Shown here in pieces: positions 4,675 through 36,529 of a stretch of 64,000 bases of DNA. The notes below the pieces were generated by a model. It was given only the letters and a program-made list of their open reading frames with translations, searched no databases and was not told where the DNA came from. Position 1 is the first letter of the stretch. Each line of letters begins with the position of its first letter. A program made the position numbers and the translations under genes. Source of the DNA: Elusimicrobiota bacterium (GTDB lineage: Bacteria > Elusimicrobiota > Elusimicrobia > UBA1565 > UBA9628); the NCBI GenBank assembly GCA_016207665.1, contig JACQPG010000050.1, positions 5,519-69,518 on the forward strand, given 5' to 3'.

Positions 4675-5699
4675 CAGCCTATGCGTATGCGCGGGTCTAC
4701 GAGGGCGTAGACGATGTCCGAGATTAAGTTGGCCAAGACGAACAGGAACGCGGCCAGCAGGCTCGAGCCGAGCACCCCGGGGACGTCGAGCTGCTGCGCC
4801 GCGACCACGGTCCAGCGGCCTATGCCGGGATAGTCGAAGACGGTCTCGGTGATGACCACGCCGCCCAGCAGGCCGATGAAGAGCAGGCTCGAGAGCGTCA
4901 CCACCGGGATCAACGCGTTGCGCAGGGCGTGCTTCTTGACGATCACCGGCCCGGGCAGGCCCTTGGCGCGCGCCGTTCTGATATAGTCCTTGCCCAGCTC
5001 CTCGAGCATCGAGGAGCGGGTGATGCGCAGCAAGAGCGCCAAGCTGATGTAGATGAGCGTCGTCGCCGGCAGTATCAGATGCTTGATCACGTCGACGAAG
5101 GCGGCGAATTGCCCGTTGAGCAGCGTGTCCACGGTCAGAAGGCCGGTGTAATGCCTGAAGGCCTCGGAGTGCACCAGAAGATCGACGTCGAGGGAATAGC
5201 GCCCCGGCGGGAACCAATGCAGCCGGCCGTAAAAGATCATGAGCAGCAACAGGCCCAGGACGAAGCTCGGCAGGGAATAGCCGGTGATGGCGATGAAGCG
5301 CGTTAGGTGGTCTATGAATCGATCCTTGTAGACGGCCGAAAGCGTGCCCAAATAGACCCCGATGATCAGGATCGGCAGGAACGCCAGCACCGCCAGCTCG
5401 AAGGTCGCAGGGAAGAAGGCACGGACGGCCTCGGCCACGGGCATCTTGGCGGTCTCGGAATATCCCAGGTCGCCTCGCAGCACCTGCTTAAGCCAGATCC
5501 AGTACTGCACCGGCATGGGGTCGCGCAACCTGTACTTCTCGATCACCTGCTCCAGGGCCGAGAGTTGGCGCGGGTCCTTGATGTAGAGCGAGGCCCTCAT
5601 CTCCGGCGTCAGGAACTGGAGCGCCCCGAACAAAAGGGCCGTCACGCCGAACATGACGAAAGGCAGGAACAAGAGGCGGCGGCCGATGAATTTAAGCAC
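4674..5699 (-). CDS. ABC peptide/nickel transporter permease (DppB/OppB family)
   Basis: 341 aa. Typical DppB N-terminus MLKFIGRRLLFLPFVMFGVTALLF and EAA-like loop (YIRTARAKGL). Confidence 0.9.
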   Translation of the reverse strand: MLKFIGRRLLFLPFVMFGVTALLFGALQFLTPEMRASLYIKDPRQLSALEQVIEKYRLRDPMPVQYWIWLKQVLRGDLGYSETAKMPVAEAVRAFFPATFELAVLAFLPILIIGVYLGTLSAVYKDRFIDHLTRFIAITGYSLPSFVLGLLLLMIFYGRLHWFPPGRYSLDVDLLVHSEAFRHYTGLLTVDTLLNGQFAAFVDVIKHLILPATTLIYISLALLLRITRSSMLEELGKDYIRTARAKGLPGPVIVKKHALRNALIPVVTLSSLLFIGLLGGVVITETVFDYPGIGRWTVVAAQQLDVPGVLGSSLLAAFLFVLANLISDIVYALVDPRIRIG

Positions 5700-5701
5700 T
5701 G

Positions 5702-7468
5702 TCAGCGCCCTTTTCCAGCGGCACCCGCCTTGTAGATCGGGTAATAGTAGCTGCCATAGGGCGAATCCGGGAACACCGGGTTATGATACCAGCCCTTGAC
5801 CCAATCCCGCTGGGTGCGATAGCGCACCCCGTCCAAGACCACGATATGCGGCACGTCCTCATATTCGATCTCCTGGGCCTTGCGATAGAGCTCCTTGCGT
5901 TTGGCGATATTGGTCTCGCGATTGGCGGCCTCGATGATCTTGTCGAGCTCCTCGTTCTTGTACTTTTGAGTGATCGGATAATCCCCCAGCGAATGCAGCA
6001 GGGGGAAGGCGAAGTTGTGCGGGTCGGGGTAATCGGCGTTCCAGCCCATCACGAACACGGGCAGCTTGGAGGATTTGTAGTTGTCCAGGAACGTGGGCCA
6101 CTCGATGGCCCGCACGTCGATCTTGAATTTGGGATTAAGGCTCTCCACGTTGCGCTTGATCATCTGGCAGATGGTCTGGCGCGGGACGTTGCCCGTATTG
6201 AAGGACAGGGTGAACTTGAAGCCGGTTTCCCAGGCCCGGCCTCCCCAGGCCTTTTCGAAATGCTCCTTGGCCTTTTCCATGTCGAACTTATAGGTCTTTT
6301 GCTTCGGATTGTGGCCGGGCAAGGCCTTGGGAATGGCGCCCGTGGCTTGGGTGGCCTTGCCGCGCATCACGTCGCGGATATAGCCCTCGTAATCGAAAGC
6401 ATGGGCGAAGGCCTTGCGCACGTCCTTGTCCGAGTAGAAATCGGGCGGGATGCCGTTGCCGTCGAATTTCCCGGATCCGATATTGGGGTTGGCCACGTGG
6501 TTGATCTTGAAGGTGAAGAAAGCCACGGGATTCATCTCCATGGTGGGAAGATCATCCTTGATCTCGACCCCGTGGATGCCCTGGAGTTGATTGAGCACGG
6601 GGCGGTCCGCGTAGATGGCGTCGGCGTCCCCTGCCTGGAGCATCAGCTTCCGCGTGCCGAACTCGTCGACGCCCTTGACGATCACGTGCTTGAGCTTGGC
6701 CGGCGCCCGCCAATAGCCGTCGTTTCGGGTCAGCACCACTTCCTTGGTCTTTTGATCCCAGCGCTCGAGCTTGAATGGGCCGCTGCCATTGGACCGCTCG
6801 TAGTAAGGGGAGTTCCTCTTCTCGGGATTGTTATGCTTGGCCCAGTTGGCCTCCGCGCCGTCCCAATCCCCGTTCTTGGCCGACCAGGATTTCGAGAGCA
6901 CCGGCGCCCAGGACGCCAATATTCCGAGCAACGGAGCGTAAGGAGCGGGAAGATTGAGCACCAGGTTGTTGCCTTGCGCCTGGACGGCTCTTTCCACGTC
7001 CTTATAGACGTTGGGCTTGAGTTTTCCCCCTTCGTCCCGGGTGGAGGGATAGCCGACCAAGGGCTCGAGCAGCAACGAGGACGGGCCCGCGACGCGGTCG
7101 TAAAGGACGAATCGCATGATGGAGTAACGCACATCCTCCGCGGTCAAGGGGCTGCCGTCATGGAATTTCACGCCCTGGCGAATCGGTATGGTGTAGCGTT
7201 TGCCGTCGGCGGAGATCAGGCCGTTCTCCTTGCTGGGGACCTTGGCGGCTATCAAAGGGACCAGCTTTTCGGTGGACTCCCCATCGAAGAAGAAAAGGGG
7301 CTCGTAGATGTTGAGTATCAGATTGTGGCTGGCCGTATCATAAGACCAGGCGGGATCCAGGCTGTCCGCGCCCGAGATGGTGACATAGATATAGGTGTCC
7401 GGGTTCTTGATCTGCGCGGAAGCAAAAAGTGGCAAGAAGGAGAAAACGAGCGCAAATAATCGTTTCAT
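5702..7468 (-). CDS. ABC transporter substrate-binding protein, family 5 (peptide/nickel)
   Basis: Signal peptide MKRLFALVFSFLPLFASAQ, then an SBP_bac_5-like body. Start moved to the ATG at 7468, which has an AGGA 9 nt upstream. Confidence 0.85.
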   Translation of the reverse strand: MKRLFALVFSFLPLFASAQIKNPDTYIYVTISGADSLDPAWSYDTASHNLILNIYEPLFFFDGESTEKLVPLIAAKVPSKENGLISADGKRYTIPIRQGVKFHDGSPLTAEDVRYSIMRFVLYDRVAGPSSLLLEPLVGYPSTRDEGGKLKPNVYKDVERAVQAQGNNLVLNLPAPYAPLLGILASWAPVLSKSWSAKNGDWDGAEANWAKHNNPEKRNSPYYERSNGSGPFKLERWDQKTKEVVLTRNDGYWRAPAKLKHVIVKGVDEFGTRKLMLQAGDADAIYADRPVLNQLQGIHGVEIKDDLPTMEMNPVAFFTFKINHVANPNIGSGKFDGNGIPPDFYSDKDVRKAFAHAFDYEGYIRDVMRGKATQATGAIPKALPGHNPKQKTYKFDMEKAKEHFEKAWGGRAWETGFKFTLSFNTGNVPRQTICQMIKRNVESLNPKFKIDVRAIEWPTFLDNYKSSKLPVFVMGWNADYPDPHNFAFPLLHSLGDYPITQKYKNEELDKIIEAANRETNIAKRKELYRKAQEIEYEDVPHIVVLDGVRYRTQRDWVKGWYHNPVFPDSPYGSYYYPIYKAGAAGKGR

Positions 7469-8123: not shown

Positions 8124-10292
8124 TTAAGGGCGAGAGTGCTTCTTGCCCAGGGCATGCCGGTAGAGCGAATAGACCACGGCGGCGTATAGTCCCGTGGAGA
8201 GGAGGGTCTCGAACGCCGGGTGGCCGGCCTCCGGGCGGCGCAATTGCAAGAACTGGGAGAGGCCGCCGGCCCATGGGAGCGTGCTGATCACCGCGATGCC
8301 GGCGATCACGATGCCCATCAAGGCGTCGCCGGCTATGAGCCCGGAGGCGTAGAGCGAGCCCGGATCGTGCTCGGCCACGGCCTGCCGTTTTTTGCGCGCC
8401 ACATACCAGGCCAACAGGCCTCCGACCATCATCATCGGCCAGTTGGTGATGGGCAGGTAGAGTCCGATAGCGAAAGCCAAGGCGGAGATGCCGCACATCT
8501 CCACGATGAGGCCGATGCCGGCTCCGGTGAGCAGCAAGGTCCAAGGCAGCTGGCCGCCCGTGGCGCCCTGGACCAGGCTGGCCATGAGGCTGGCTTGAGG
8601 GGCCTCCAAGGGATTGGGATGCTCCGGAGTCGGGGCCCCGAAGCCGTAGGCCATATAGAGCAGGAGCAGAATGAAGCCGGTCCGGACGGCTGAGACCAAG
8701 GTGCCCATGATCTCGGCCAGCTGCACTTTCCAGGGAGTGGCTCCGACCAGGGCGGCCGTCTTGAGATCCTGGGATAGATCCCCGGAAAGCGCGATGGCGA
8801 CGCAAACCACGGCCCCCCCCATGATGGCGGCCGTCTTGAGCGTGGCGGGGTCATGGCCCAGGGCGGCGAAGAGCAGGGTCATGGAAAGAAGCGCCGTGAT
8901 CGTCATCCCCGAGACCGGCTGATTGGTCGTGCCGATGAGCCCCACCATGCGGGCCGAGACGGCCACGAAGAAAAAGGCGAAGAGGAGGACGATGGCCGCC
9001 TCGACGGCGGATAATCCGAAGATGGGATGGAGCCACAGCAGCAGGCCGACCGACGCCACCCCCAAGCCGACCACGGGGATCGGAAGGTCGTGCTCGGTTC
9101 GAGGCAGGCCTGCGCCGAAGCGCGAGGCCGTCCGGCTCAGATAGAAGAAGAGCACGGCGCCGACCGCGGCGCCCACGGCCCCGCCTAACGCCATCCGAGC
9201 CAATCCCATCCATGACCAGTCGATTTCGCCGGCGAAAGCGCCGACCAGGAATCCCAAGGCCGCGCCGCCGAATACGATGGCGCCGTTCTCCCAATCCACG
9301 GCGGGCAACGCATTTCCTGATGCCCGCCGGGACGGTTCGCTCCCGCTCACCGTCCACAACCGATTGAGTGAGCCCAGTATCAGGGGCAGGGAACGCAGCA
9401 AGCTCAACAAACCGCCGAAAGCCACGCCTCCCGCTCCTATATAGCGCACATAGGTGGACCGTATTTGGCCCATGGACATCTGGTCGATCGGCATGGTCCC
9501 CGGCTCTATCACGTTCGATCCTCCGAGAGCGTCGATGAGAGGGATGAGCACCAGATAACCCAGGAGGCTGCCCGCGAACATGACGGCCACGATACGAGCC
9601 CCGATGAGATAGCCGACGCCGACGAACAGGGGAGAGACCTCGTAGCCGAAGCCCGCTTTATGGAGATTGGGCCAGGTCCAGACGATGGCGTCCTTGAACA
9701 GCATGAGCGCCGACATGGCGAATTTGAAAAGCCCCCCGACCAAGGCTCCTTGCAGCACCGGCGCGGCGGTGGCGCCTCCTTTATCCCCCGCTACCAGGAC
9801 CTCGGCCGCGGCTCTCCCCTCGGGGAATGGAAGGGTCTCGTGCTCCAGCACGACCAAGGAGTGGCGCAAAGGGATCATCATCAGAAGCCCGAGCAGCCCG
9901 CCCGCCACGCCCAGCCAAAACACCTTCGCGTTGGAGAGCTCCCCTCCCAGGAAAAGCAGCGCCGGGACGGTGAAAATCACGGCGGCGGCCAGCGACTCGC
10001 CGTTGGAGGCGATGGTGTGCACGATGTTGTTCTCGAGAATGGTGCCGTTGCGGCCGATCAGCCGCGGCAAGAGCATGCGCAACACGCCCATGGAGATGAT
10101 GGCCGAGGGGATCGACGCCGAAACGGTCAGTCCGATCTTGAGCCCCAGATAGGCGTTGGCCGCGTTGAAGATGATGGAGAGGATGAAGCCCAGCAAGACG
10201 GCCTGAACGGTGAACTCGGGGACGCGGCGATCGTCGGGGATATAGGACAACGCGGCGCTGGAGCTCTGTTCTCCGGAGGAAGGGCTTTTCAT
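8124..10292 (-). CDS. OPT-family oligopeptide transporter
   Basis: Start at MKSPSSGEQ...; the ATG overlaps the oppF stop as ATGA (10289-10292). Many TM helices. N-terminal region [36 protein letters not shown] is typical of bacterial OPT transporters. Confidence 0.8.
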
Positions 10293-11308
10293 CCGAGCGC
10301 TGTCAGAGCGGCGTCGCTGGGTTTCTGCCTGAAAGGCTGAATAGGACAGGCGGCCCAATGCCCGGGCTTGACCTCGATGAAGTCGGGCGAGTCGCGGCGG
10401 CAGGGCTTTTGGGCATAACGGCAGCGGGGATGAAAATGGCAGCCCGGCGGCGGCTTGAGCGGGCTAGGCACGTCTCCGGTCAGCAGGATGCGCTTGCGCC
10501 TTTTCTCGATGTTGGGATCAGGGATCGGCACCGCGGAGAGCAGGGCCTCGGTGTAAGGATGCTGGGGATCATTGAAGAGGGTCTCGGATTCCGCCAGCTC
10601 CACGACTCGGCCCAGGTACATGACCGCGATGCGGTTGCAGAGATGCCGCACCACGGAGAAATCATGGGAGATGAAGATATAGGTGAGCTTAAGCTCCCGC
10701 TGCAGATCCTTGAGGAGATTGAGGATTTGGGCCTGGATCGAGACGTCGAGCGCGGAGACGGGCTCGTCGGCGACGATCAGCTTGGGATTGAGAGCCAGGG
10801 CCCGGGCGATGCCGATGCGTTGGCGCTGGCCGCCCGAGAACTCATGGGGATGCCGCTCGAGGTGGCTTTGCGCGATGCCGCAGAACTCCAGCAGCTGGAG
10901 AAGGCGCTTGCGGCGCTCGGCCTTGTCCGGGTAGACGCCATGGATGATGAAGGGCTCGGTGATGATCGATTCGACCGTCATCCGGGGATTGAGACTCGAG
11001 AAGGGATCCTGGAATATGACCTGCATCTCGCGGCGCAGTCCGCGCAATTCGGAGGAGCGCATGCCGTAGATGGAGCGTCCCTCGAAGACCACGTCTCCCG
11101 CCGTGGGCTTGTCGAGGGCCAGTATCATGCGGCCGAGCGTGGTCTTGCCGCAGCCGGATTCTCCAACCACCGCGAAGCTCTCCTGGGGAAAAACCGAGAA
11201 GCTGACCCCATCGACGGCCTTGACCGTGCCCTTTTCGCCGAATAGTCCCTTGCGCACGGTGAAATGCTTCTTGATGTCCTTGACCTCGAGCAGCGGACGG
11301 GTGCTCAT
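10289..11308 (-). CDS. ABC oligopeptide transporter ATP-binding protein (OppF/DppF type)
   Basis: Walker [10 protein letters not shown], signature LSGGQRQR, Walker [13 protein letters not shown]. Has the C-terminal oligopeptide ABC extension. The ATG at 11308 overlaps the oppD stop (ATGA). Confidence 0.9.
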
Positions 11309-12327
11309 GAAGGCGCGGCGCTCTGGGCCGGGGAATAACGGTGCCGGGACTGCTCGGATTCCGATTCCTGTTTCCAGCAATTGGAGACGCGGCCGCCCGG
11401 AAGATGAAAGTGCGGCGGGTCCTGGATGCGGCAGCGGTCCATGGCCACCGGACAGCGGACCACGAAAGGACAACCCGGGAACTCCCGAGTCAGCTCAGGG
11501 GGCTGGCCGCCGATGGCCTCGAGCCTCTCCTTGCGCGCGTAGATCGACGGCACGGAGCTCAGCAGGCCTTGGGTGTAGGGATGCTTGGGATCCTTGAAAA
11601 GCGAGTGTATGGACGCCTGTTCGATCTGCCGGCCGGCGTACATCACAGCCACGTCGTCGGCCATCTCGGCCACCACCCCGATATTGTGGGTGATGAGCAC
11701 GATTGCCATCCGGTATTCCTTTTGAAGGTCCCGCATCAGCTCGAGTATCTGGGCCTGTATGGTCACGTCCAAGGCCGTGGTCGGCTCATCGGCGATGAGC
11801 ACGTCCGGCTCGCAGGACAGGGCGATGGCGATCATGGCCCTTTGCCTCATGCCGCCCGAGAACTGATGCGGATAATCCTGCACGCGCTCTTCCGCGTGAG
11901 GGATCCCGACTTTCTTAAGGAGCTCGACGGCCTTGGCCCAGGCCTTTTCGCGGGTGGCTCCCTGGTGGAGCATCACCGCCTCCGCGATCTGCTCGCCCAC
12001 CGGCAGCACCGGATTGAGCGAGGTCATGGGCTCCTGGAATATCATGGCTATGCGATTGCCCCGGATGTCCCCCATGCCCTGCGGGCCGAGCGCCAGGAGA
12101 TCCCGCCCGTTGAACAATATTTCCCCCGCCACGATGCGGGCGGGCGGCTCGGGCAACAGCCTCAGGATGGAGAGGGCATGCACGCTCTTGCCCGAGCCTG
12201 ATTCGCCCACGACGGCCAGGGTCTTTCCCGGGTAAAGGTCGTAGCTGATGCCGTCTACGGCGCGGATGACCGAATCGTCAAGATGAAAATAAGTCCGCAA
12301 ACCGCGGACCGAAAGGACAGGCTCCAC
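11305..12327 (-). CDS. ABC oligopeptide transporter ATP-binding protein (OppD/DppD type)
   Basis: GTG start. Walker [28 protein letters not shown]. Confidence 0.9.
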
Positions 12328-12353
12328 TCAGGATTTTCTCTACTTTGCCGCCG

Positions 12354-12587
12354 TTAGATAGCGGTCGTTATGAGGCTCTCGGTTGACAAGACTCCGGGGA
12401 TCGCGCGGATGCCCCTGACGACCACGTTCGAAAGGGTGGAAAGATCGTCCGTCTCGATATCCAGCACCAGGTCCCAGCGGCCGAACACCGCGGTGACGTG
12501 CGAAACGCCCCTGGTGGCCTTGATCTGAGCTAGAGCCCCCTTTTCCTTGCCCGCCATCAGACGAACCAGAACCAGTCCGGTGACCAT
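12354..12587 (-). CDS. stand-alone Lrp/AsnC ligand-binding (RAM) domain protein
   Basis: 77 aa from ATG 12587, with GAGGGGTGA upstream. Pattern VTGLVLVRL...ALAQIKATRGVSHVTAVFGRWDLVLDIETDDLSTLSNVV...IPGVLSTESL is typical of the RAM domain. No helix-turn-helix domain. Confidence 0.7.
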   Translation of the reverse strand: MVTGLVLVRLMAGKEKGALAQIKATRGVSHVTAVFGRWDLVLDIETDDLSTLSNVVVRGIRAIPGVLSTESLITTAI

Positions 12588-12659
12588 GTTCACCCCTCGA
12601 TATACGGCCTCAAATATGCCGAAGTCGAACGATGTTTTCAGTATATCAAAAAAGTTGAT

Positions 12660-14255
12660 ATGATTGACGCTCGCCTACTGGCGCGGATTAGGAAGTGCGT
12701 CAGCTCCTTCATGAAATCCCAGCATAGAAAGAAGGGCCTGAAGGTTTTCGCGGCGCTGGCGGTGTTGTACGCCATCGCCTTCTCTGGCGAGACTCTCTGG
12801 CGGCGGCGCACCCGGGCCGTGGTGCTGGAACCCTCCAAATCCTCCTATTTCCACTATGAGTTCATCGAGATACGCCTAAGCAGCCGCGATCCGGCCCTGA
12901 GACGCCGGTGGCGGCAGTCGCCTCCCAAGGTCGTGGTCACGCGCGGGGGCCAGCCCGTCACGACCATCGCCTCCATCAGGGAAATGGCGTTGCAGCCCGA
13001 CGAATCGACCGGGATGTGGTCCGCGCGTTGGCCCTGCCCATGGAACGCGCCTACCGGTGTCTATGAGCTGAAGCTGGTCGAACCCGGCGACTTGGGCGAG
13101 CGCCTGACCGCCCGTCCGTTTTCCATCCGGCGCCGCAAGCCCAAGCCCGTGCCCCACCGTTTCGCCGTCCTGACCTTGGAGAGCGTGAGGCCGTTGCGGA
13201 CCATGAAGGTGAGGACTCCGGACGGAGAGATCAAGGATTGGCGCGGTCTCTTCGATTGGGTGGAATATATCGGCGCCGACGCCTTCTGGGTATTGGCGGG
13301 ACGGACTCCAGGGGACCGGCCGCAAGAGGTCTGGTTGAGCCACAACCTTCCCATGATCCCGGAGCTGGCCAAGGAATCTCGCCGGCGGGGCATCAAGTTC
13401 GGCGTCTATGTCATGTGCTATCTGACGCTTTCTAGCGACCGGCTGTCGCGCTACGAGTACGCTCTCGACGTCCAGGACGGGCGGCCCGTGCCGACCCGCG
13501 CCATTTCCATACGCGATCCCCGGCGCGCCGAGGACGTGGGCGCGCTCCTCGAGCGCATGCGCGATATCCCGGAGGTCGATTATCTGGGCCTGGATTACAT
13601 ACGCAATCCCTTGGGAGGGTATGAGCTGGTGGACGATTTCTATCGCGAGATGCCGGTGTCCCCCCCTCCCGGCTGGGACAAATTGAGCCGGGAGGAGCGC
13701 ATGGTGTATTTCGTGCGCAAGAAGATCATGCGCCTCGATAGGGACTTCATCGACGCCTGGCAGTGGTGGCGGGCGCATCGCGTGGCCGGCATAGTCAGGG
13801 GCATCAAGGCGAGGCTCGGCGACTCCAAGCCCTTGTGGGCCTTCACCTTGACCTGGGACAAGGGCTGGCATCACGGTCAGGATCCGGTGATGATGAACGA
13901 CGCCGGAGTCGATGCCGATGCTCTGATGCTTTATGAGGCCGATGAGTCGCAGTTCGCGGCCATGATGCGGGACTGGAGCCGCTATGTCCGGAAAGACGAC
14001 GTCCAGCTCATCGTCGGCGACGTGATCGATTGGAATCTCCATCAGAAACACCCGGAGGGTCCCAAGGAGTTTTATCGACGCACGGTCGAGGCCATCAACA
14101 AGATCCACGCGGACGGGATGGCGACCGGAGTCTTTTTTCACGATCTCGACCGCGCGCTTTGGGGGCGCTTGGGCCCCTGGGACAGCCGGGCATGGATGGA
14201 CGAGGCGCGCCGCGCCGTCCAGTATTTCAAGGCCTCGGGAGTCGTCGCGCGATGA
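12660..14255 (+). CDS. membrane-anchored hypothetical protein, possible glycoside-hydrolase-like TIM-barrel domain
   Basis: 531 aa. N-terminal TM LKVFAALAVLYAIAFSG. No confident family match from sequence alone. A glycoside-hydrolase-like fold is an inference from composition (many W/D/E/Y, DYLGLDYIRNP) and locus context. Confidence 0.45.
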   Translation: MIDARLLARIRKCVSSFMKSQHRKKGLKVFAALAVLYAIAFSGETLWRRRTRAVVLEPSKSSYFHYEFIEIRLSSRDPALRRRWRQSPPKVVVTRGGQPVTTIASIREMALQPDESTGMWSARWPCPWNAPTGVYELKLVEPGDLGERLTARPFSIRRRKPKPVPHRFAVLTLESVRPLRTMKVRTPDGEIKDWRGLFDWVEYIGADAFWVLAGRTPGDRPQEVWLSHNLPMIPELAKESRRRGIKFGVYVMCYLTLSSDRLSRYEYALDVQDGRPVPTRAISIRDPRRAEDVGALLERMRDIPEVDYLGLDYIRNPLGGYELVDDFYREMPVSPPPGWDKLSREERMVYFVRKKIMRLDRDFIDAWQWWRAHRVAGIVRGIKARLGDSKPLWAFTLTWDKGWHHGQDPVMMNDAGVDADALMLYEADESQFAAMMRDWSRYVRKDDVQLIVGDVIDWNLHQKHPEGPKEFYRRTVEAINKIHADGMATGVFFHDLDRALWGRLGPWDSRAWMDEARRAVQYFKASGVVAR

Positions 14256-14749
14256 GAGCGTGGGCGGCGGCGGCGCTTCTGTGGATCGGAGCAGCGTTTC
14301 CTTCTTTGTGCTCGGCTCAAGTGCCGGAGCCGGCCCGGGAGGACGTTCGCCTGCCCGCTCCCGAGCCCTCTCCCGCAAAAAAAAGGAAGGGCAAGGACAA
14401 TCCTCCCTTAGCCCTGGCCCTGGACCTCGCTTTCGGCCCCACGGTATGGGCTCAAGTCCAGATCTCCACGGCGGGGCCCGTGGTCGAGCTGAGCAAGCTG
14501 GTCAAGGAGGGCTATTACAAGCTGGAGCTCATCCAGCTCATCCTGATGAGTTCTCAGTCCAAACGGCCGCTCAAGGAGCTGCTCGAGAAGCGCCGCAAGG
14601 GCGCCAAGCTGGCCGAGATCGCTTGGGACCTGGGCCTCGATTATGAGAAGCTCTACGGCTCGGCTCTGGCCGTCCAGGAGCTCGTGGACAAGGAGTATCT
14701 TCCCCGCTTTCCCGAGACTCGCCTGCGTCGCGCCGGCGAGGAGCCTTGA
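14252..14749 (+). CDS. secreted hypothetical protein
   Basis: About 166 aa from the ATG at 14252 (ATGA overlap with the upstream gene). Signal peptide MRAWAAAALLWIGAAFPSLCSAQ. Confidence 0.5.
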   Translation: MRAWAAAALLWIGAAFPSLCSAQVPEPAREDVRLPAPEPSPAKKRKGKDNPPLALALDLAFGPTVWAQVQISTAGPVVELSKLVKEGYYKLELIQLILMSSQSKRPLKELLEKRRKGAKLAEIAWDLGLDYEKLYGSALAVQELVDKEYLPRFPETRLRRAGEEP

Positions 14750-15213
14750 GCGGGTTCCTGGCTTGCGCGCTGGCGCTGGCTCTCAACGCCGGCCCCGCGG
14801 CGCCTCTCAAGGCGCCGAAGCGGACCCGCTTGGAGCTTCCCAGCGGCGACAGGCTCATGGTCGACGTGGTCGACACTCCGGCCGAGCGCATGAAAGGGCT
14901 GATGTTCCGCCGTTCGCTTCCCAAGGATTATGGGATGCTTTTCGTGTTTCCGGCGCAGACCTGGCAGACCTTCTGGATGAAGAACACCTGGGTGAGCCTC
15001 GATATCGTATTCATCGACAAGGATAAAAAGGTGACCGCCATCTATCACGAGGTTCGCCCTTCCACGCCCAAGACCAGCGACTTGGAAGTCGCGCGCGTCA
15101 GCGGATTGGGCCAATTCGTGCTGGAGTTGCCGGCCGGCGCGGCGCGGCGCTACTCGCTTGATAAAGGCCGACTCGTCGACTTCAACCCCCCTATAACGCC
15201 CCCAAGGCGCTAA
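14746..15213 (+). CDS. DUF192 family protein
   Basis: 155 aa. Motif PAERMKGLMFRRSLPKDYGMLFVFP...FWMKNTWVSLDIVFID...VLELPAG matches the DUF192 consensus. TTG start overlapping the upstream stop (TTGA). Confidence 0.75.
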   Translation: MSGFLACALALALNAGPAAPLKAPKRTRLELPSGDRLMVDVVDTPAERMKGLMFRRSLPKDYGMLFVFPAQTWQTFWMKNTWVSLDIVFIDKDKKVTAIYHEVRPSTPKTSDLEVARVSGLGQFVLELPAGAARRYSLDKGRLVDFNPPITPPRR

Positions 15214-15327
15214 AGGCCCAGGTTCCGCTTCATCTTATAGACGGTGTTCAAGGTCACCCCGAGCACCGACCGGCCAATCGCATACCACCGCGCGGGTAAT
15301 TGTCATATAATCTTCACACGTCCGTCG

Positions 15328-16416
15328 ATGAGCCCCTCCCTAATGTCTTTCGAACCGATATTCCGCCTGAGCCTGCTGATCAGCCTGGCCTTGCTCGGCT
15401 TCGTGGCGCTGCTCATCGTGGCCCTCATCATCTCCAAGGGCCTGCGCCAGCTCTGGCTTCGTTACTCGAGCTGGCGAGAGGATCGGTTTAGACGTTTGGT
15501 GCTGGGGGCGATCGCGACCGATCATCCCCAGGCGGCCGGCCGGCTTTTGTCTTGCTTGTCCTGGCCCGGGGACAGGAGGGTGGTCAAGGCGTATCTATTG
15601 CGCCTGGCCGAGGGGCTCAGCGGGCATGGACGGGAGCGCATATACGCGCTGTTCGAGAGCGCCGGATTTGCCGACGACGAGATAGGACGGTTGGGCAGTT
15701 GGCGCTGGTGGGTCCGAGCCCAGGCCGCCCAGAGGCTGGGGATCATGATGTGCAGCAAGGCCGCGCCCGAGCTGGTGCTGGCGCTCGATGACCGCTCCAT
15801 CGAGGTGAGGCTCATGGCCGCCTGGGCCCTGGGCCGCTTCGGCGATTGGCCGGCGCTTTTCCGGATCGTGGAGGCCTTGGCGCGCTACTCGAAGCTGGCC
15901 ACGCTCCGGGTGACCGAAATCATCATGCAGATCGGCGCGGCCGCCGGTCCCATGGTCGAGCTGTTGCTCAAGCATGCCGATGAGGACGTCAGGCTCCTGG
16001 CCGTTCGGCTGGCCGGGCTGATCAAGGATGAGAAGGCCGCCGGGCAATTGCGGGAGTTCGTGAAGGATCCATCCGTCGACATCAGGGTCGCTTCCTGCGA
16101 GGCCCTCGGGGCCTTGGGCGGGGCGCGGGGCGCGAGCTCGCTGGTGGAGGCTCTCTCGGACGCGGCCTGGCCGGTGCGCGCCAAGGCGGCGCTCATGCTG
16201 GGCCGTCTGGCCTTGCCCCAGACCGCCGAGGCCTTGAGGACGACTCTTTCGGACCCGGCCTGGTGGGTGAGGCTCAACAGCGGACGGGCCTTGAGCCGGA
16301 TGGGTCAAGCGGGGCGCGAGATACTCCAGTCCGCGCTCTCCCATCCCGATCGCTTCGCCCGTGATATGGCGGCGCAATGGCTCGATGAATCCGAGCCGGC
16401 GCTGGGGACCCGATGA
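15328..16416 (+). CDS. HEAT/PBS-lyase repeat membrane protein
   Basis: N-terminal TM LSLLISLALLGFVALLIVALII, then multiple HEAT-like repeats (VRLMAAWALGRFGD, VRLLAVRLAGL, VRVASCEALGALG, VRAKAALMLGRL, VRLNSGRAL). Start moved to the ATG at 15328, downstream of a TGTCATATAAT box. Confidence 0.65.
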   Translation: MSPSLMSFEPIFRLSLLISLALLGFVALLIVALIISKGLRQLWLRYSSWREDRFRRLVLGAIATDHPQAAGRLLSCLSWPGDRRVVKAYLLRLAEGLSGHGRERIYALFESAGFADDEIGRLGSWRWWVRAQAAQRLGIMMCSKAAPELVLALDDRSIEVRLMAAWALGRFGDWPALFRIVEALARYSKLATLRVTEIIMQIGAAAGPMVELLLKHADEDVRLLAVRLAGLIKDEKAAGQLREFVKDPSVDIRVASCEALGALGGARGASSLVEALSDAAWPVRAKAALMLGRLALPQTAEALRTTLSDPAWWVRLNSGRALSRMGQAGREILQSALSHPDRFARDMAAQWLDESEPALGTR

Positions 16417-18587
16417 CGGGTTTCAATCTTTACGCGGCTCTCGAGATATACCAGGCGGGCCTGCTCTTCTATTTCATCGCGGTCAATATAGTCTATCTGG
16501 CCCTTTTCCTGATCTCGCTCTCGGCCATCGTCGATTATCTGCATCACAAGGGCTATCGCAACGCGCAGGAGGTGTTGCGCTCCCGATTGACGCCCCCGAT
16601 CTCGGTGCTTGTCCCGGCCCACAATGAAGCCGTGAGCATCGTCGCCAGCGTGCGCAGCCTGCTTCAATTGAACTATCCTGAATACGAAGTGATCGTGATC
16701 AACGACGGCTCGACAGATCGCACCCTGCAAGCCTTGACCGAGGCCTTCGGCCTGAGGAAGACCAAGCGCGTCTATCACCGCACCTTGCCCACGGCCGAGG
16801 TGCGCGGCCTATACGCAGGAGCCAAGACCTTTCCTTGGGTCACGCTCACGGTCATAGACAAGGAGAAGGGCGGCAAGGCCGATGCTCTCAACGCGGGCAT
16901 CAACGTCTCCCAATACCCGCTCTTCTGTTCGGTGGACGCCGACTCGATACTCGAGCGCGATTCTCTATTGCGCGTGGTCATGCCCTTCATGGAACGCTTC
17001 GCGGTCATGATGGGGGTCGGCGGCATCGTGCGGGTGGCCAACGGTTGCGCGATATCCGACGGATTCGTGCAACGGATCCGGTTGCCGAGGCGCTGGCTGC
17101 CGTGCTTCCAGGCCGTCGAATACCTCAGGGCGTTCTTATCCGGCCGCGTCGCCTGGAGCCGTATGAACGGTCTGCTGATTCTTTCCGGGGCCTTTTCTCT
17201 GTTCCGCAAGGACCCCGTCTTGGCGGCCGGCGGCTATCAACGCGGCAGCGTGGGCGAGGACATGGACCTGGTGGTGAGGCTGCACATGAACGCCGCGGGA
17301 CGGTCCGGGCCGCGCGAGATCGCCTTTGTCCCGGATCCGGTCTGCTGGACCGAGGTGCCGGAGAGCTTCAAGACGCTTTGGCGGCAACGCAATCGCTGGC
17401 ATCGGGGGCTGGGCCAGTCCTTGGCCGGCCACGCCAGCCTGATCTTTAACCCGCGCTTCGGCCTGATCGGGATTTTCGCGGCCCCGTATTTCTGGTTCGT
17501 GGAGTTCCTAAGTCCGGTGATCGAGCTTTCGGGCTACGCGGTGTTCGCGCTCTCGTGGGCGCTCGGGTCGGTACGCTGGGACGCCTTCGCCGCCTTCCTA
17601 ATACTATCCATATTGATGGGAGTGAACCTGTCCTTGCTGGCCGTTCTCCTTGAGGAGTTCACCCTTCATCGCTACCCCAGGATACGGGACTTGCTCAAGC
17701 TCCTGGCCTGCGCCGTCGCGGAAAATCTGGGCTATCGGCAGTTCGTCAGCCTTGCCCGCCTTCATGGGCTGATCGATTGGCTGCGCAACGAGACCTTGTG
17801 GGGCTCCATGGATAGAAAGGGCCTGCAGTCGGCGGCTCTGTTCCTGGGCCTTTTGGCCACCGCTTGCTTGTGCCGGGCTTCCATGGCGCTCAACGCTGGG
17901 CTCGGCTATGAGGATTTCTCTTTCGCCGGAGCGGGCCGCAGCTCGTGGATCAGGGTTGATCGCCGTCTTTCCCGGGGGTCCATCTCCGGCGGCCTTACGC
18001 GCATCGAGCGCTTCGGCGAACGCGAGGCCCAAGGGGAGCTGGGTCTGGGCGCCAGGCTCGGCCCGAGCGCGGGACTCGAGTTGGGGGCCAGCGCTTCCCC
18101 GGAGGCTCATATACTCCCCGAGTGGTCGGCCGCGGCGGTGCTTTACTGGAACCCCCGGAGGCCGGTGACGATCAGCCCCGGCCTGCGCAGCGCCGGCTTT
18201 CGCGCGGCCGGGGTGCATACGGCCAGCCTGGGGATCGAAGCCCAGGCCGCGCCCGGCCTCGCGGTTTTGGTCCGCGGCTTCGGCAGCGTGACTCAATTCC
18301 GCGGCTCGCGCGCCGAGGACTGGACCCCCGCCGTCCTGCTCGCGCTCCGCGCTCAGCCGATGGATTGGCTTCTTGTCGCGCCCTCGTTCGCCTATCGGGA
18401 GGAATCCTTCGAGGCCGGCGCTCCGGGCAGCGGCATCTCGCGCACCTTCCAAGCGCATGCCGCCCGTCTCGATCTATCGGCCGGCCGAGAGCGGGGCTGG
18501 GCCGCGAGGGCGGCTTGGGAATACGAGAGAAGGGTCCCTAAGAACTTCGTCAGGCGCTACGAGTTGGGACTCAGCTACCGGTTCTAG
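16413..18587 (+). CDS. processive family-2 glycosyltransferase (PgaC/IcaA/NodC-like synthase) with about 260-aa C-terminal extension
   Basis: 724 aa. N-terminal TMs, DGS (VINDGSTD), DxD (SVDADSILERD) and QRNRWHRG (the Q/RxxRW processivity motif), then C-terminal TM helices. The frame stays open a further 260 codons (see finding). ATGA overlap with the HEAT gene. Confidence 0.85.
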   Translation: MTGFNLYAALEIYQAGLLFYFIAVNIVYLALFLISLSAIVDYLHHKGYRNAQEVLRSRLTPPISVLVPAHNEAVSIVASVRSLLQLNYPEYEVIVINDGSTDRTLQALTEAFGLRKTKRVYHRTLPTAEVRGLYAGAKTFPWVTLTVIDKEKGGKADALNAGINVSQYPLFCSVDADSILERDSLLRVVMPFMERFAVMMGVGGIVRVANGCAISDGFVQRIRLPRRWLPCFQAVEYLRAFLSGRVAWSRMNGLLILSGAFSLFRKDPVLAAGGYQRGSVGEDMDLVVRLHMNAAGRSGPREIAFVPDPVCWTEVPESFKTLWRQRNRWHRGLGQSLAGHASLIFNPRFGLIGIFAAPYFWFVEFLSPVIELSGYAVFALSWALGSVRWDAFAAFLILSILMGVNLSLLAVLLEEFTLHRYPRIRDLLKLLACAVAENLGYRQFVSLARLHGLIDWLRNETLWGSMDRKGLQSAALFLGLLATACLCRASMALNAGLGYEDFSFAGAGRSSWIRVDRRLSRGSISGGLTRIERFGEREAQGELGLGARLGPSAGLELGASASPEAHILPEWSAAAVLYWNPRRPVTISPGLRSAGFRAAGVHTASLGIEAQAAPGLAVLVRGFGSVTQFRGSRAEDWTPAVLLALRAQPMDWLLVAPSFAYREESFEAGAPGSGISRTFQAHAARLDLSAGRERGWAARAAWEYERRVPKNFVRRYELGLSYRF

Positions 18588-22494: not shown

Positions 22495-23421
22495 TTGATG
22501 GCCGCCGCTCCAGCGACGGCCACGTCTCTTTTTCCCGACTCGCCCTTCACCGATAAGGCCGTGGGGACGACCTCGGCCGCCTTCTTGAAGCTTCCCGTGG
22601 GCGCCCGGGCCGAGGCCATGGGCGGGGCCGCGGCCGGCTCCTCCAGCGGCGCCGAGTCGATTTTCCGCAACCCGGCCGGCCTGGCCCGTCTCAACGCTCC
22701 GAAGGCGACGGAGCTCATCATGACCTACAGCCAGCTTTTGGCCGATTCCTACGCCGGAGGCATGGGCCTGGGACGCCGCGCCATGGGCGGAACCGTGGGA
22801 ATGGGCTTGATCTATTTTTCCCAGAGCTCCTTGACCTCCTACGACGCGCAGGGCGACGTGACCGGAGAGTTCAGGCCCGTGGATCTGGCCTTGTCTTTGT
22901 CCTATGCCCGGCCGGTCGAGAACTTTCTGATCGGCGGAAGCTTCAAGGGCATCCGTTCTTCTTTGGCCGGCGAGACAGGCTCTAGCGTGGCAGCCGATGT
23001 CGGGGTCCAGGCCCTGCATGTGACCAATGTGGGCGAAGGGCCCCTGGATGTGGGCGCCTATTTGAGCCAGCTGGGGCCGCCCTTGAAACTCGGATCGGTC
23101 TCCTCTCCGCTTCCCTTCCAAGCACGCACGGGCTTTCTCTGGCACGCCTCCGAGAGGATGCTGGGCGCGGTCGACATCGTGCTGCCCGTGGATCACGATC
23201 CTTACGTGGCCCTGGGCGTCGAGCTGTCGCACCGGCATCGACAGTGGGCTGGATTCTTGAGAGCGGGATACAACCAGGCCCGTTCGCGCGGGTTGGATGG
23301 TTTGGCCGAAGTCACCGCCGGCGCGGGCCTCGAGTTCGGGAGCTTCCGGCTCGACTACGCCTGGATACCTTTCGGCGACCTGGGGGTCACCAATCGCGTG
23401 GCTCTCGGCTTCAAGCTTTAG
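22495..23421 (+). CDS. PorV-like outer membrane protein (T9SS PorV/LptO family-like)
   Basis: N-terminal region FLKLPVGARAEAMGGAAAG...FRNPAGLARL resembles the PorV/LptO signature GARAxAMGGA. Beta-rich with alternating hydrophobics. The start is probably a few codons upstream (signal peptide ...LLLLMAAAPATA). Confidence 0.55.
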   Translation: MMAAAPATATSLFPDSPFTDKAVGTTSAAFLKLPVGARAEAMGGAAAGSSSGAESIFRNPAGLARLNAPKATELIMTYSQLLADSYAGGMGLGRRAMGGTVGMGLIYFSQSSLTSYDAQGDVTGEFRPVDLALSLSYARPVENFLIGGSFKGIRSSLAGETGSSVAADVGVQALHVTNVGEGPLDVGAYLSQLGPPLKLGSVSSPLPFQARTGFLWHASERMLGAVDIVLPVDHDPYVALGVELSHRHRQWAGFLRAGYNQARSRGLDGLAEVTAGAGLEFGSFRLDYAWIPFGDLGVTNRVALGFKL

Positions 23422-34934: not shown

Positions 34935-35359
34935 TTCTTGGCCGGTTCGGTGGCCATGGCTATCTCCCGCGCTCCCGCTCTTTTGGCCGCGGCCAACAGT
35001 CGCTGCACGATCTTGTATGGGACGCTTTCGTCGACTCTCAGCAGGACCACAACGGAAGGCGATTTGGAAAGCTCCACCTTCAAGGCGGGCTCGAGCCGGT
35101 CCCATCCGACGTCCACGGCGCGCAAGGCGATGCGCCCGTCCTTGGTATAGGTCACGACCAGGGACTGGTCCTCGACCGGAGGCAGCGAGGCCTTCGGCAG
35201 TATGACGGGATGGTTGGGATAGGACAGGAGAGGGGCGGTCACGAAGAGGATCACCAGCAGCACCAAAGAGATGTCTATGACCGGGATGATGTTCACCTCG
35301 GTCACCGGCTCGGCTTCAGCCTGGAGACGCCGTAGCTTGAGAAGCTGGTATTTCGCCAT
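34931..35359 (-). CDS. ExbD/TolR family protein (second copy)
   Basis: 142 aa. Single TM IIPVIDISLVLLVILFV and periplasmic ExbD domain. Confidence 0.8.
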   Translation of the reverse strand: MAKYQLLKLRRLQAEAEPVTEVNIIPVIDISLVLLVILFVTAPLLSYPNHPVILPKASLPPVEDQSLVVTYTKDGRIALRAVDVGWDRLEPALKVELSKSPSVVVLLRVDESVPYKIVQRLLAAAKRAGAREIAMATEPAKK

Positions 35360-35810
35360 CCTCGTCTTCCGCGATCGTCTGCACCAGCGCCACCGACTCG
35401 GCGCCGCAGGACTTGATGAGTTCCAGGGTCCGCACTACCATGCCATGGGCGATCTCCGGGCCGGGGGCCAAGAACACCTTCCGGTCCGTGCGCCGAGCCA
35501 GCTCTTGCCTCATGAAAATAGCGAAACGGTCGGTGTCGGAGAAGAATTGATTCCCCACCACCAGGCCCGTCGGTCCGAGAGCCACCACCAGCACCACTTC
35601 CGCGGGCTTCTGCGGCTCGGGGGGCGTAAGATCCTCGCTTTCCAGCCTCTCCTGTTTGGCCGCGGTCTTGACCTTGAGCATCGATTGAGTCATCATCGGA
35701 GAGAGCACCAGCAGGATGATCAGCAGCACCAGAGACACATCAGCCAGGGGCACGACGTTCACTTCGCTGATCTCCCGCGCTTCCTCCGCCTGATGAAAGG
35801 GAGAGCTCAT
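35316..35810 (-). CDS. ExbD/TolR family protein (first copy)
   Basis: Start MSSPFHQAEE at 35810 (ATGA overlap with exbB). TM VVPLADVSLVLLIILLVL. The long upstream part of the listed ORF is not coding. Confidence 0.8.
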   Translation of the reverse strand: MSSPFHQAEEAREISEVNVVPLADVSLVLLIILLVLSPMMTQSMLKVKTAAKQERLESEDLTPPEPQKPAEVVLVVALGPTGLVVGNQFFSDTDRFAIFMRQELARRTDRKVFLAPGPEIAHGMVVRTLELIKSCGAESVALVQTIAEDEDGEIPASQATASPG

Positions 35811-36469
35811 GGTCCTAGCCGGGGACCGGGGCGCATCGGAGCTTGGATCGGAGGAGAGGCCTGGGGAAGCAGTTCGGCGAGCTCGAAGACCCAAAGATCG
35901 GCTTGGCTGAGCCTTTGCCGGGCCGCTAGGGTGAAATAGTTGTAGAACACCGCGCTCATCACGGCGACTCCTATGCCGGCCGCGGTGGCGACCAAGGCCT
36001 CGGAGATGCCGGCCGCCACGACCACCGGTCCGCCTGCTCCGGCGATAGCCAGGTCGTGAAAGGCGCGCATGATTCCCAGCACCGTCCCCATCAAGCCGAT
36101 CAATGGCGCGATGAAGCTGGCCGTGCCGAAGAAGCCGAGCCGCCGATTGAGCTCCATGTGCATGCGCTGGCGGTAAAGCTGAAAAGCCTCGACCAGCCGC
36201 TCCGTGTTTGGGTCCTTGAGATTGAGCAGCCTCTCGAGGGCTTCTCCCATGATTCCGGACTGGACTTGGCATATCCCTAGGGCGCCTTCGTGGTCTCCTT
36301 TATCCAATTTGGCCTTGACCTTTTCCCAAAAACCGCCGGGCAAGGGGCAAGCCACCCAAAACACGTAGAAACGCTCGATCGCCTGGGCTACGATAAGGAT
36401 AGACAGCACCAGGAGAATCGGCATGGTGATGCTGACTTTCAGCATCTGTCCGAAACTCATCTGTTCCAT
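35807..36469 (-). CDS. ExbB/TolQ/MotA family proton-channel protein
   Basis: 220 aa. Three TMs with the conserved GLMGTVLGIMRAF...GISEAL region. Confidence 0.85.
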   Translation of the reverse strand: MEQMSFGQMLKVSITMPILLVLSILIVAQAIERFYVFWVACPLPGGFWEKVKAKLDKGDHEGALGICQVQSGIMGEALERLLNLKDPNTERLVEAFQLYRQRMHMELNRRLGFFGTASFIAPLIGLMGTVLGIMRAFHDLAIAGAGGPVVVAAGISEALVATAAGIGVAVMSAVFYNYFTLAARQRLSQADLWVFELAELLPQASPPIQAPMRPGPRLGP

Positions 36470-36529
36470 ACGTTTGGAGTATAGGCCAGAATGGATTTGG
36501 CCGCAAGGGCGAATATATTAAGGAACAGG

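Follow-up and report, generated by a model that had tools for sequence, protein, structure and literature searches.

Two independently conserved envelope modules probably lie side by side in a 5.9-kb polysaccharide-synthase locus of an Elusimicrobia genome

We analysed a window of 64,000 nucleotides from a 78.7-kb contig that belongs to an Elusimicrobia metagenome-assembled genome (MAG); in this window positions 12660-18587 are filled by five genes of the plus strand (here g1 to g5), with opposite-strand neighbours on both sides. An earlier sequence-only reading of this block described five same-strand genes chained by 4-nt overlaps and took them for one exopolysaccharide-like operon of an unrecognised type. 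All five open reading frames (ORFs) are real genes, since g1 and g2 have homologues, and g3, g4 and g5 pass curated Pfam cut-offs; the products of g1 and g5 are 100% identical to NCBI proteins. Such a block could be a single five-gene machine, or it could consist of two modules, each with a history of its own, that came to adjoin in this lineage.

Gene g1 (12660-14255, 531 aa) overlaps g2 (14252-14749, 165 aa from the ATG) by the 4 nt ATGA, and g2 in turn overlaps g3 (14746-15213, 155 aa, TTG start) by TTGA; these three genes would form a translationally coupled module A (12660-15213). In the same way g4, which ends at 16416, and g5 (16413-18587, 724 aa) share an ATGA, and together they constitute module B (15328-18587). 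The chain of overlaps described earlier is hence present at three of the four junctions. The seam between the modules (15214-15327, no strand) is the sole junction without an overlap, the gap between g3 and g4 being 30 nt if g4 starts from the GTG at 15244 (390 aa) and 114 nt if it starts from the ATG at 15328 (362 aa). The ATG agrees with the lengths of the homologues, the GTG being an in-frame alternative. A TATAAT-like hexamer lies inside the gap (15306-15311); a sigma-70 scan found no full promoter there, and the promoter/terminator scan gave nothing above shuffled sequences.

The g1 side is flanked upstream by a 77-aa AsnC-type gene, OppD/F and an OPT transporter, and the g5 side downstream by an OmpR-type response regulator and then a carboxyltransferase. 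The stop codon of g5 (TAG, plus strand) and that of the convergent response regulator gene (minus strand) share the tetranucleotide CTAG (18584-18587), hence there is zero intergenic room for terminators after g5. Both the GC content and the GC content of third codon positions (GC3) are even over the five-gene block and match those of the neighbours, which argues for rearrangement and not for recent foreign insertion; a recent horizontal insertion of module B was considered and rejected on these grounds.

For g1 a membrane-anchored protein with a possible glycoside-hydrolase-like fold had been proposed, and the predicted structure bears this out. The protein has the architecture of a type-II anchor, with a transmembrane (TM) helix at residues ~29-47, followed by an Ig-like beta-sandwich (~54-156) and a (beta/alpha)8 barrel (~168-525). 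The model, built from an alignment with 44 homologues, is a confident TIM barrel with a predicted local distance difference test score (pLDDT) of 92, and the structural neighbours of the barrel found by Foldseek are all glycoside hydrolases. The highest TM-score belongs to Cwp19 and the second-best to the hydrolase domain (GH153) of PgaB, which acts on poly-N-acetylglucosamine (PNAG). At the sequence level g1 has no match in Pfam (E up to 0.1), NCBIfam or PDB, although it belongs to a family with more than 280 homologues at 55-66% identity. The GHL10 profile (PF02638) is touched weakly by 7 of 70 distant g1 relatives (best E 0.002, all below the cut-off), and not by g1 itself at E up to 0.1.

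Cwp19 of Clostridioides difficile, a GHL10 protein, is a peptidoglycan lytic transglycosylase (PMC6016235). In the g1 family D312-Y313 after strand 4 and Y425 after strand 6 are conserved, and G453 on strand 7 is invariant; by strand position, not by superposition, these residues correspond to D196-Y197, Y297 and G328 of Cwp19 (PMC5765458). The two proteins differ in that Cwp19 has cell-wall-binding repeats, and in their place g1 has a membrane anchor at its N terminus and the Ig-like domain. We suggest that g1 would be held in the inner membrane by its N-terminal helix, with the Ig-like domain and the GHL10/GH153-like TIM barrel facing the periplasm, and that it may cleave or remodel an envelope glycan (peptidoglycan or another polysaccharide), the DUF192 protein being its constant partner.

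The product of g2 is, as noted earlier, a small secreted protein; it is built of a signal peptide (MRAWAAAALLWIGAAFPSLCSAQ), a linker rich in Pro and Lys, and a C-terminal part that is helical, and belongs to no Pfam or NCBIfam family. The assignment of g3 to DUF192 (COG1430) is firm as well (PF02643, 106.4 bits at a cut-off of 27). This protein also has a signal peptide and is secreted, and its relatives in PDB, 3pjy and 3m7a, are both of unknown function. We collected 80 g1 loci from different Elusimicrobiota species by pattern scans, and counts were made on the 53 that have 4 kb or more of downstream sequence. A DUF192 gene adjoins g1 in 40 of the 53 and a g2 homologue is present in 20. Where g2 is missing, as in L006 (8001-10048) and many of the loci L008-L087, there is a 4-nt overlap between the g1 stop and the DUF192 gene. 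Thus, the conserved, translationally coupled pair is g1-DUF192, and g2 is optional.

The g1 module is always divergent from a gene for an AsnC-type ligand-binding protein of 77 aa, with OppD/F and OPT next in line (8124-12590 in the window; also L004-L006 and L172). If g1 acts on peptidoglycan like Cwp19, this neighbourhood could, as a speculation by analogy, reflect recycling of cell-wall peptides.

Turning to module B, the product of g4 is a HEAT-repeat membrane protein, as the sequence-only reading had it (HEAT_2, 104 bits, above the Pfam curated cut-off), similar to repeats of the PBS-lyase/alphaRep type. Its single TM helix, near the N terminus, is bordered by a short, nearly uncharged N-flank and by 3-6 Lys/Arg residues on the C-flank, a pattern seen both in the window protein and in five of six homologues. 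Since the C-flank is strongly positive, the positive-inside analysis predicts that the HEAT domain should be cytoplasmic. It is therefore no stand-in for a periplasmic scaffold of tetratricopeptide repeats (TPR), the part that had been suggested for it, and many relatives of module B carry TPR proteins in addition to the HEAT protein.

The genomic context of g4 was assessed in 80 metagenome loci whose family 2 glycosyltransferases (GT2) are relatives of g5 at 45-62% identity; the denominators of the counts below are the loci with enough sequence. The HEAT gene stands directly upstream of the GT2 gene in 64 of 65 loci, and a gene encoding a response regulator with the REC domain only is found upstream of the HEAT gene in 42 of 54. 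This REC-only regulator (~127 aa) directly precedes HEAT-GT2 also in L088 (5376-5762) and L090 (5389-5772), the metagenome loci being L091-L170; it is absent from the window. Its position suggests phosphorylation-dependent control through the HEAT protein. The single-pass HEAT protein on the cytoplasmic face would then be an obligatory partner of the GT2, likely a regulator or adaptor, because the REC-only response regulator lies just upstream in most relatives. A separate observation concerns L089, from an Endomicrobiales genome, where a stand-alone PilZ gene (5374-5799, minus strand) is divergent from HEAT-GT2; it is the sole hint of cyclic di-GMP (c-di-GMP) involvement seen in the HEAT-GT2 family.

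The N-terminal half of g5 (16413-17807, residues 1-465) is the glycosyltransferase. It contains the motifs DGSTD (98-102), DAD (175-177), GED (281-283) and QRNRW (325-329), and a conserved tail WGxM(E/D)RKG, the key residues of the motifs being invariant or nearly so among 32 members of the GT2 family (alignment A6). The Pfam matches are Glyco_tranf_2_3 (90 bits), Glyco_trans_2_3 and Chitin_synth_2, above or near their cut-offs. The nearest NCBIfam families are PgaC/IcaA (the best match), an XrtG-associated glycosyltransferase, NodC and CelA, none of which comes close to its cut-off: the PgaC_IcaA equivalog (TIGR03937) gives 120.8 bits where 422.3 are needed, and CelA (TIGR03030) 38 bits where 699 are needed. 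Hydrophobic segments are found at residues 6-44, 349-367 and 384-402, and Foldseek, run on a low-confidence model, matched g5 to the Chlorella virus hyaluronan synthase over 531 columns. The sequence features support the assignment of this half to the membrane-embedded processive type and not to the dolichol-phosphate mannosyltransferase (DPM) or ceramide glucosyltransferase type, in agreement with the processive GT2 named earlier. By this assignment the enzyme would polymerise a nucleotide-sugar and thread the growing chain through the inner membrane.

The continuation of the g5 frame into a beta-barrel, which had also been noticed, was confirmed by profiles: residues 466-724 belong to the YaiO family (PF19413, 33.8 bits at a cut-off of 23.9; TIGR04390, 55.1 at a cut-off of 32). 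The barrel part proper (17889-18587, residues 493-724 of the predicted mature chain) was modelled by AF2 over residues 509-723 with pLDDT of ~70-86 and 13 strand segments. Its Foldseek matches are outer-membrane barrels, both small ones and those of polysaccharide export, namely NanC, KdgM, OmpG, PelB, PgaA and BcsC, and the sequence ends in LSYRF, the last residue, F724, being the aromatic residue of a C-terminal beta-signal. Stand-alone YaiO homologues have 254-267 aa. We presume that this YaiO-type barrel, of about 12-14 strands, would serve as the outer-membrane exit.

The two halves are connected by a joint (17808-17888, residues 466-492) that reads M466-DRKG-LQSAALFLGLLATACLC-RASMA492 and is followed by the first conserved barrel motif. 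Three Lys/Arg residues precede its hydrophobic segment and none follows it, which fits a helix running from the inside to the outside. The GT2 proteins of the family stop 7-20 residues past the conserved WGxMERKG tail, and the in-frame ATG at 17808 is placed where the separate barrel gene of the relatives begins; in L001 the latter begins at the equivalent codons in another frame, overlapping the end of the GT2 gene by 32 nt. In the closest relatives, too, the GT2 and the barrel are separate genes, overlapping by 8-32 nt in different frames. This, together with the lack of the fusion in all 46 metagenome loci with downstream sequence, would be expected if the fused frame were due to an indel introduced into this MAG by sequencing or assembly, the locus really carrying two overlapping genes and nothing unusual at the protein level; a one-base indel near 17800-17830 would suffice.

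We consider such an error rather unlikely. The fused ORF is uninterrupted, and the NCBI annotation gives the same 724-aa protein. Two further fusions, P0010 (721 aa) and P0104 (898 aa), with 47% and 52% identity, come from other, unrelated samples, and their joints keep the layout of the tail, the hydrophobic segment and the small residues, although in P0104 about 200 residues of TPR are situated between the joint and the barrel. Besides, the hydrophobic core of the signal peptide lies in the GT2 frame past the stop of the relatives, so it is not mere read-through of junk. Thus, the GT2-YaiO fusion is rare but recurrent. As only ~25 residues separate the helix from the first barrel strand in g5, an uncleaved fusion could hardly reach the outer membrane. 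Most likely, the barrel is freed by signal peptidase after A492, or its translation starts anew at the internal ATG (17808), because the joint keeps a signal-peptide-like segment (a positive n-region, a hydrophobic core and ASMA) and the barrel keeps its beta-signal.

If the five genes formed a single unit, the two modules should tend to be found together in relatives. Among the 53 g1 loci the same minus-strand response regulator is present in 40 and the same carboxyltransferase in 39, and a HEAT gene, a YaiO gene or a close GT2 relative is found near g1 in none. Loci L004-L006 have no module B, and their flanks are those of the window: AsnC-like, OppDF and OPT genes at one end, and the genes of the response regulator and the carboxyltransferase at the other. 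Vice versa, neither g1, g2 nor DUF192 occurs near the GT2 relatives in any of the 80 metagenome loci, and a YaiO or TPR-YaiO-like gene lies directly downstream of the GT2 in 19 of 46. The closest relatives show the same separation: the nearest GT2s (66% identity; L171 and L173) lie in the order HEAT-GT2-barrel, and the nearest g1 (65% identity; L172) in the order AsnC/g1/g2/DUF192/response regulator, apart from module B. In the MAG GCA_041694815.1 the two modules are on different contigs (L001 and L018).

Within module B, HEAT-GT2 is the constant core, and the envelope-spanning partners vary (for example, L001-L003 and L088-L090). The variant with a stand-alone YaiO is represented by L001, L092-L098 and L171, that with TPR-YaiO by L003 and many metagenome loci, and large TPR proteins are encoded upstream in L088 and L090. 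Loci with HEAT-GT2 and a YaiO or TPR-YaiO barrel number in the hundreds in metagenomes, in Elusimicrobia, Acidobacteria and others. In L003 the fused GT2-TPR-YaiO gene is followed (10705-14513) by genes of a 745-aa and a 511-aa protein with many hydrophobic stretches and no Pfam hit, which may be further parts of that variant; they were examined as candidate g1 homologues and are not.

Taken together, these observations lead us to conclude, with a probability of about 0.7, that the 5.9-kb block consists of two envelope modules, each conserved on its own, whose position next to each other is specific to this lineage, and that it is not one five-gene machine. The five-gene arrangement itself is a local rearrangement that dropped HEAT-GT2-YaiO between the DUF192 and response regulator genes, since the modules are apart in relatives and GC and GC3 are even. 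Hence the proposal of one five-gene operon type does not stand: the block is not syntenic in relatives, and it ought not to be listed as a new type of operon.

Several points weigh against this interpretation or parts of it. The common strand and the short gap leave room for co-transcription and functional coupling of the modules in this organism, and the second place of the PgaB hydrolase domain among the structural neighbours of g1 would agree with processing of the GT2 product by g1. The model of the GT2 half of g5 is poor (pLDDT below 50, three sequences over that half in alignment A5), so that its TM arrangement rests on hydropathy and analogy. The zero count of fusions among the 46 metagenome loci makes an indel in the MAG possible. 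Finally, the searches revealed neither a c-di-GMP domain nor any other regulatory domain of known type in the five genes, and the role assigned to the HEAT protein is a guess.

An alternative is a single exopolysaccharide operon, in which g1 would be the hydrolase reserved for this system in the periplasm, on the model of PgaB-GH153, BcsZ or PelA, with g2 and DUF192 as periplasmic accessories for the polymer made by g5. The layout is compatible with it, as five genes stand on one strand with a gap of at most 114 nt between opposite-strand genes, and at least one relative has both modules in its genome, so that action in trans is possible. At the same time, linkage is seen in none of the 53 and 80 loci, nor in the closest relatives; g1-DUF192 is fixed beside peptide-transport genes, with HEAT-GT2 adjoining in no sampled locus; and the chain of overlaps is broken exactly between the modules. 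We regard a single operon as unlikely, and return to the two-module interpretation.

In that interpretation module B would be a minimal synthase-dependent set for polysaccharide secretion, and from its sequence it is best read as an undescribed variant of such systems. The parts list of PNAG or cellulose machineries drawn up by the sequence-only reading is retained with respect to the synthase, the glycoside-hydrolase fold and the pore, and fails in the use of HEAT repeats as a periplasmic scaffold. The claim that the arrangement had not been described can be kept for HEAT-GT2-YaiO, of which the literature searched gave no description; the five-gene block is no conserved unit. In the open-access literature we found no description of a function for YaiO, for the HEAT-GT2 pair, for HEAT proteins with a synthase-dependent or PNAG synthase, or for DUF192.

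Alternatively, the product of module B could be, in place of a free exopolysaccharide, a glycan that stays in the periplasm or linked to the membrane, such as an OPG-like glucan or a glycolipid head group, and the YaiO barrel could have another role, for example in uptake or structure. The module of the window indeed has no TPR scaffold, deacetylase, lyase or c-di-GMP receptor, the barrel is small, with the uptake channels NanC, KdgM and OmpG among its neighbours, and the literature searched gave no function for YaiO. We find this quite unlikely, as the GT2 has the full set of processive-synthase motifs and predicted TM helices after the glycosyltransferase domain, TPR repeats stand before the barrel in relatives, in the manner of PgaA, BcsC and PelB, and the gene order from GT2 to barrel, with the overlap, is that of synthase-dependent systems.

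Only a handful of synthase-dependent polysaccharide systems have been studied in depth, namely those for cellulose, alginate, PNAG and Pel and, of late, Nfr. If module B does secrete a polysaccharide, it would be a candidate for a further class of such systems, would hint at what YaiO, an orphan outer-membrane protein of E. coli, may do, and would point to a route of control other than c-di-GMP, as the conservation of REC-HEAT also suggests. The in-frame fusion of synthase and pore would be a natural test case for the release of a barrel from an inner-membrane protein, and the g1-DUF192 pair provides a handle on DUF192. A bolder and tentative proposal, which we hold to be possible and not probable, combines these elements: [REC]-HEAT-GT2-[TPR]-YaiO would be an undescribed multi-phylum secretion class controlled from the cytoplasmic side by a membrane-anchored HEAT protein (mostly with a phospho-accepting REC) and not by c-di-GMP, represented here by one synthase-pore precursor split by signal peptidase, and DUF192, paired with g1, would for the first time be placed in a functional context, next to a GHL10-like glycanase of the periplasm whose partner it would be. 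What remains of interest, irrespective of this proposal, is the widespread uncharacterised HEAT-GT2-(TPR)YaiO variant, its fusion here, and the phylum-wide g1-DUF192 pair around a GHL10-like enzyme.

Two other stretches of the window encode envelope proteins unrelated to these modules: a weak match to a PorV-like outer-membrane protein (22495-23421, plus strand; E 6e-4, below the cut-off), and a 795-aa TPR/YfiO-like protein beside an ExbD/TolR-like protein (35316-38917, minus strand).

Among the known systems, PgaABCD/IcaADBC resembles the window in three respects: a GT2 synthase with the D, DxD, ED and QxxRW motifs, an exit through an outer-membrane barrel, and a GH153-like TIM barrel nearby (g1). 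The differences are that the window has no CE4 deacetylase and no PgaD and has a cytoplasmic HEAT partner, that PgaA is 16-stranded with TPRs whereas the barrel of the window is of the YaiO type and of ~230 aa, and that relatives show no genetic linkage of g1 with the synthase. The absence of PgaD, BcsB and PilZ reported earlier was reproduced, since searches of Pfam and NCBIfam with the five products found no polysaccharide deacetylase, PgaD or BcsB, and no TPR, PilZ, GGDEF or MshEN domain.

The cluster yaiS-yaiP-yaiX-yaiO of E. coli K-12 (L007, NC_000913.3, 380069-384616), encoding a deacetylase (yaiS), a GT2 (yaiP), an acyltransferase split by IS2 (yaiX) and YaiO, also combines a GT2 with a YaiO barrel of the same size (257 vs 259 aa) in one same-strand cluster. 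Thus, the GT2-YaiO pairing exists also in the organism that gave the family its name. Still, YaiP is only 27% identical to g5, the similarity of the barrel to YaiO is detectable by profiles alone, and the cluster of E. coli includes a deacetylase and an acyltransferase and lacks a HEAT protein; we found no study of its function.

The systems for cellulose (BcsABCZ), alginate (Alg8/44/K/E) and Pel (PelB-G) likewise couple an inner-membrane synthase to a barrel in the outer membrane. TPR repeats on the barrel, as in BcsC, AlgK/E and PelB, are found in many relatives of module B, and the version in the window has none. Known synthase-dependent systems typically have a c-di-GMP receptor; module B has no BcsB, PilZ, Alg44, PelD or MshEN-type receptor, and its control, if any, would apparently proceed via the REC-only response regulator and the HEAT protein, unlike that of Bcs, Alg and Pel. 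Also unlike these systems, the synthase and the barrel are encoded in one ORF in the window, and we know of no described synthase-pore precursor of this kind. What module B has in common with all of them is that the inner-membrane synthase and the outer-membrane barrel are encoded together, with GT2 and YaiO in one frame in the window and next to each other in 19 of 46 relatives, a logic that is shared by NfrAB.

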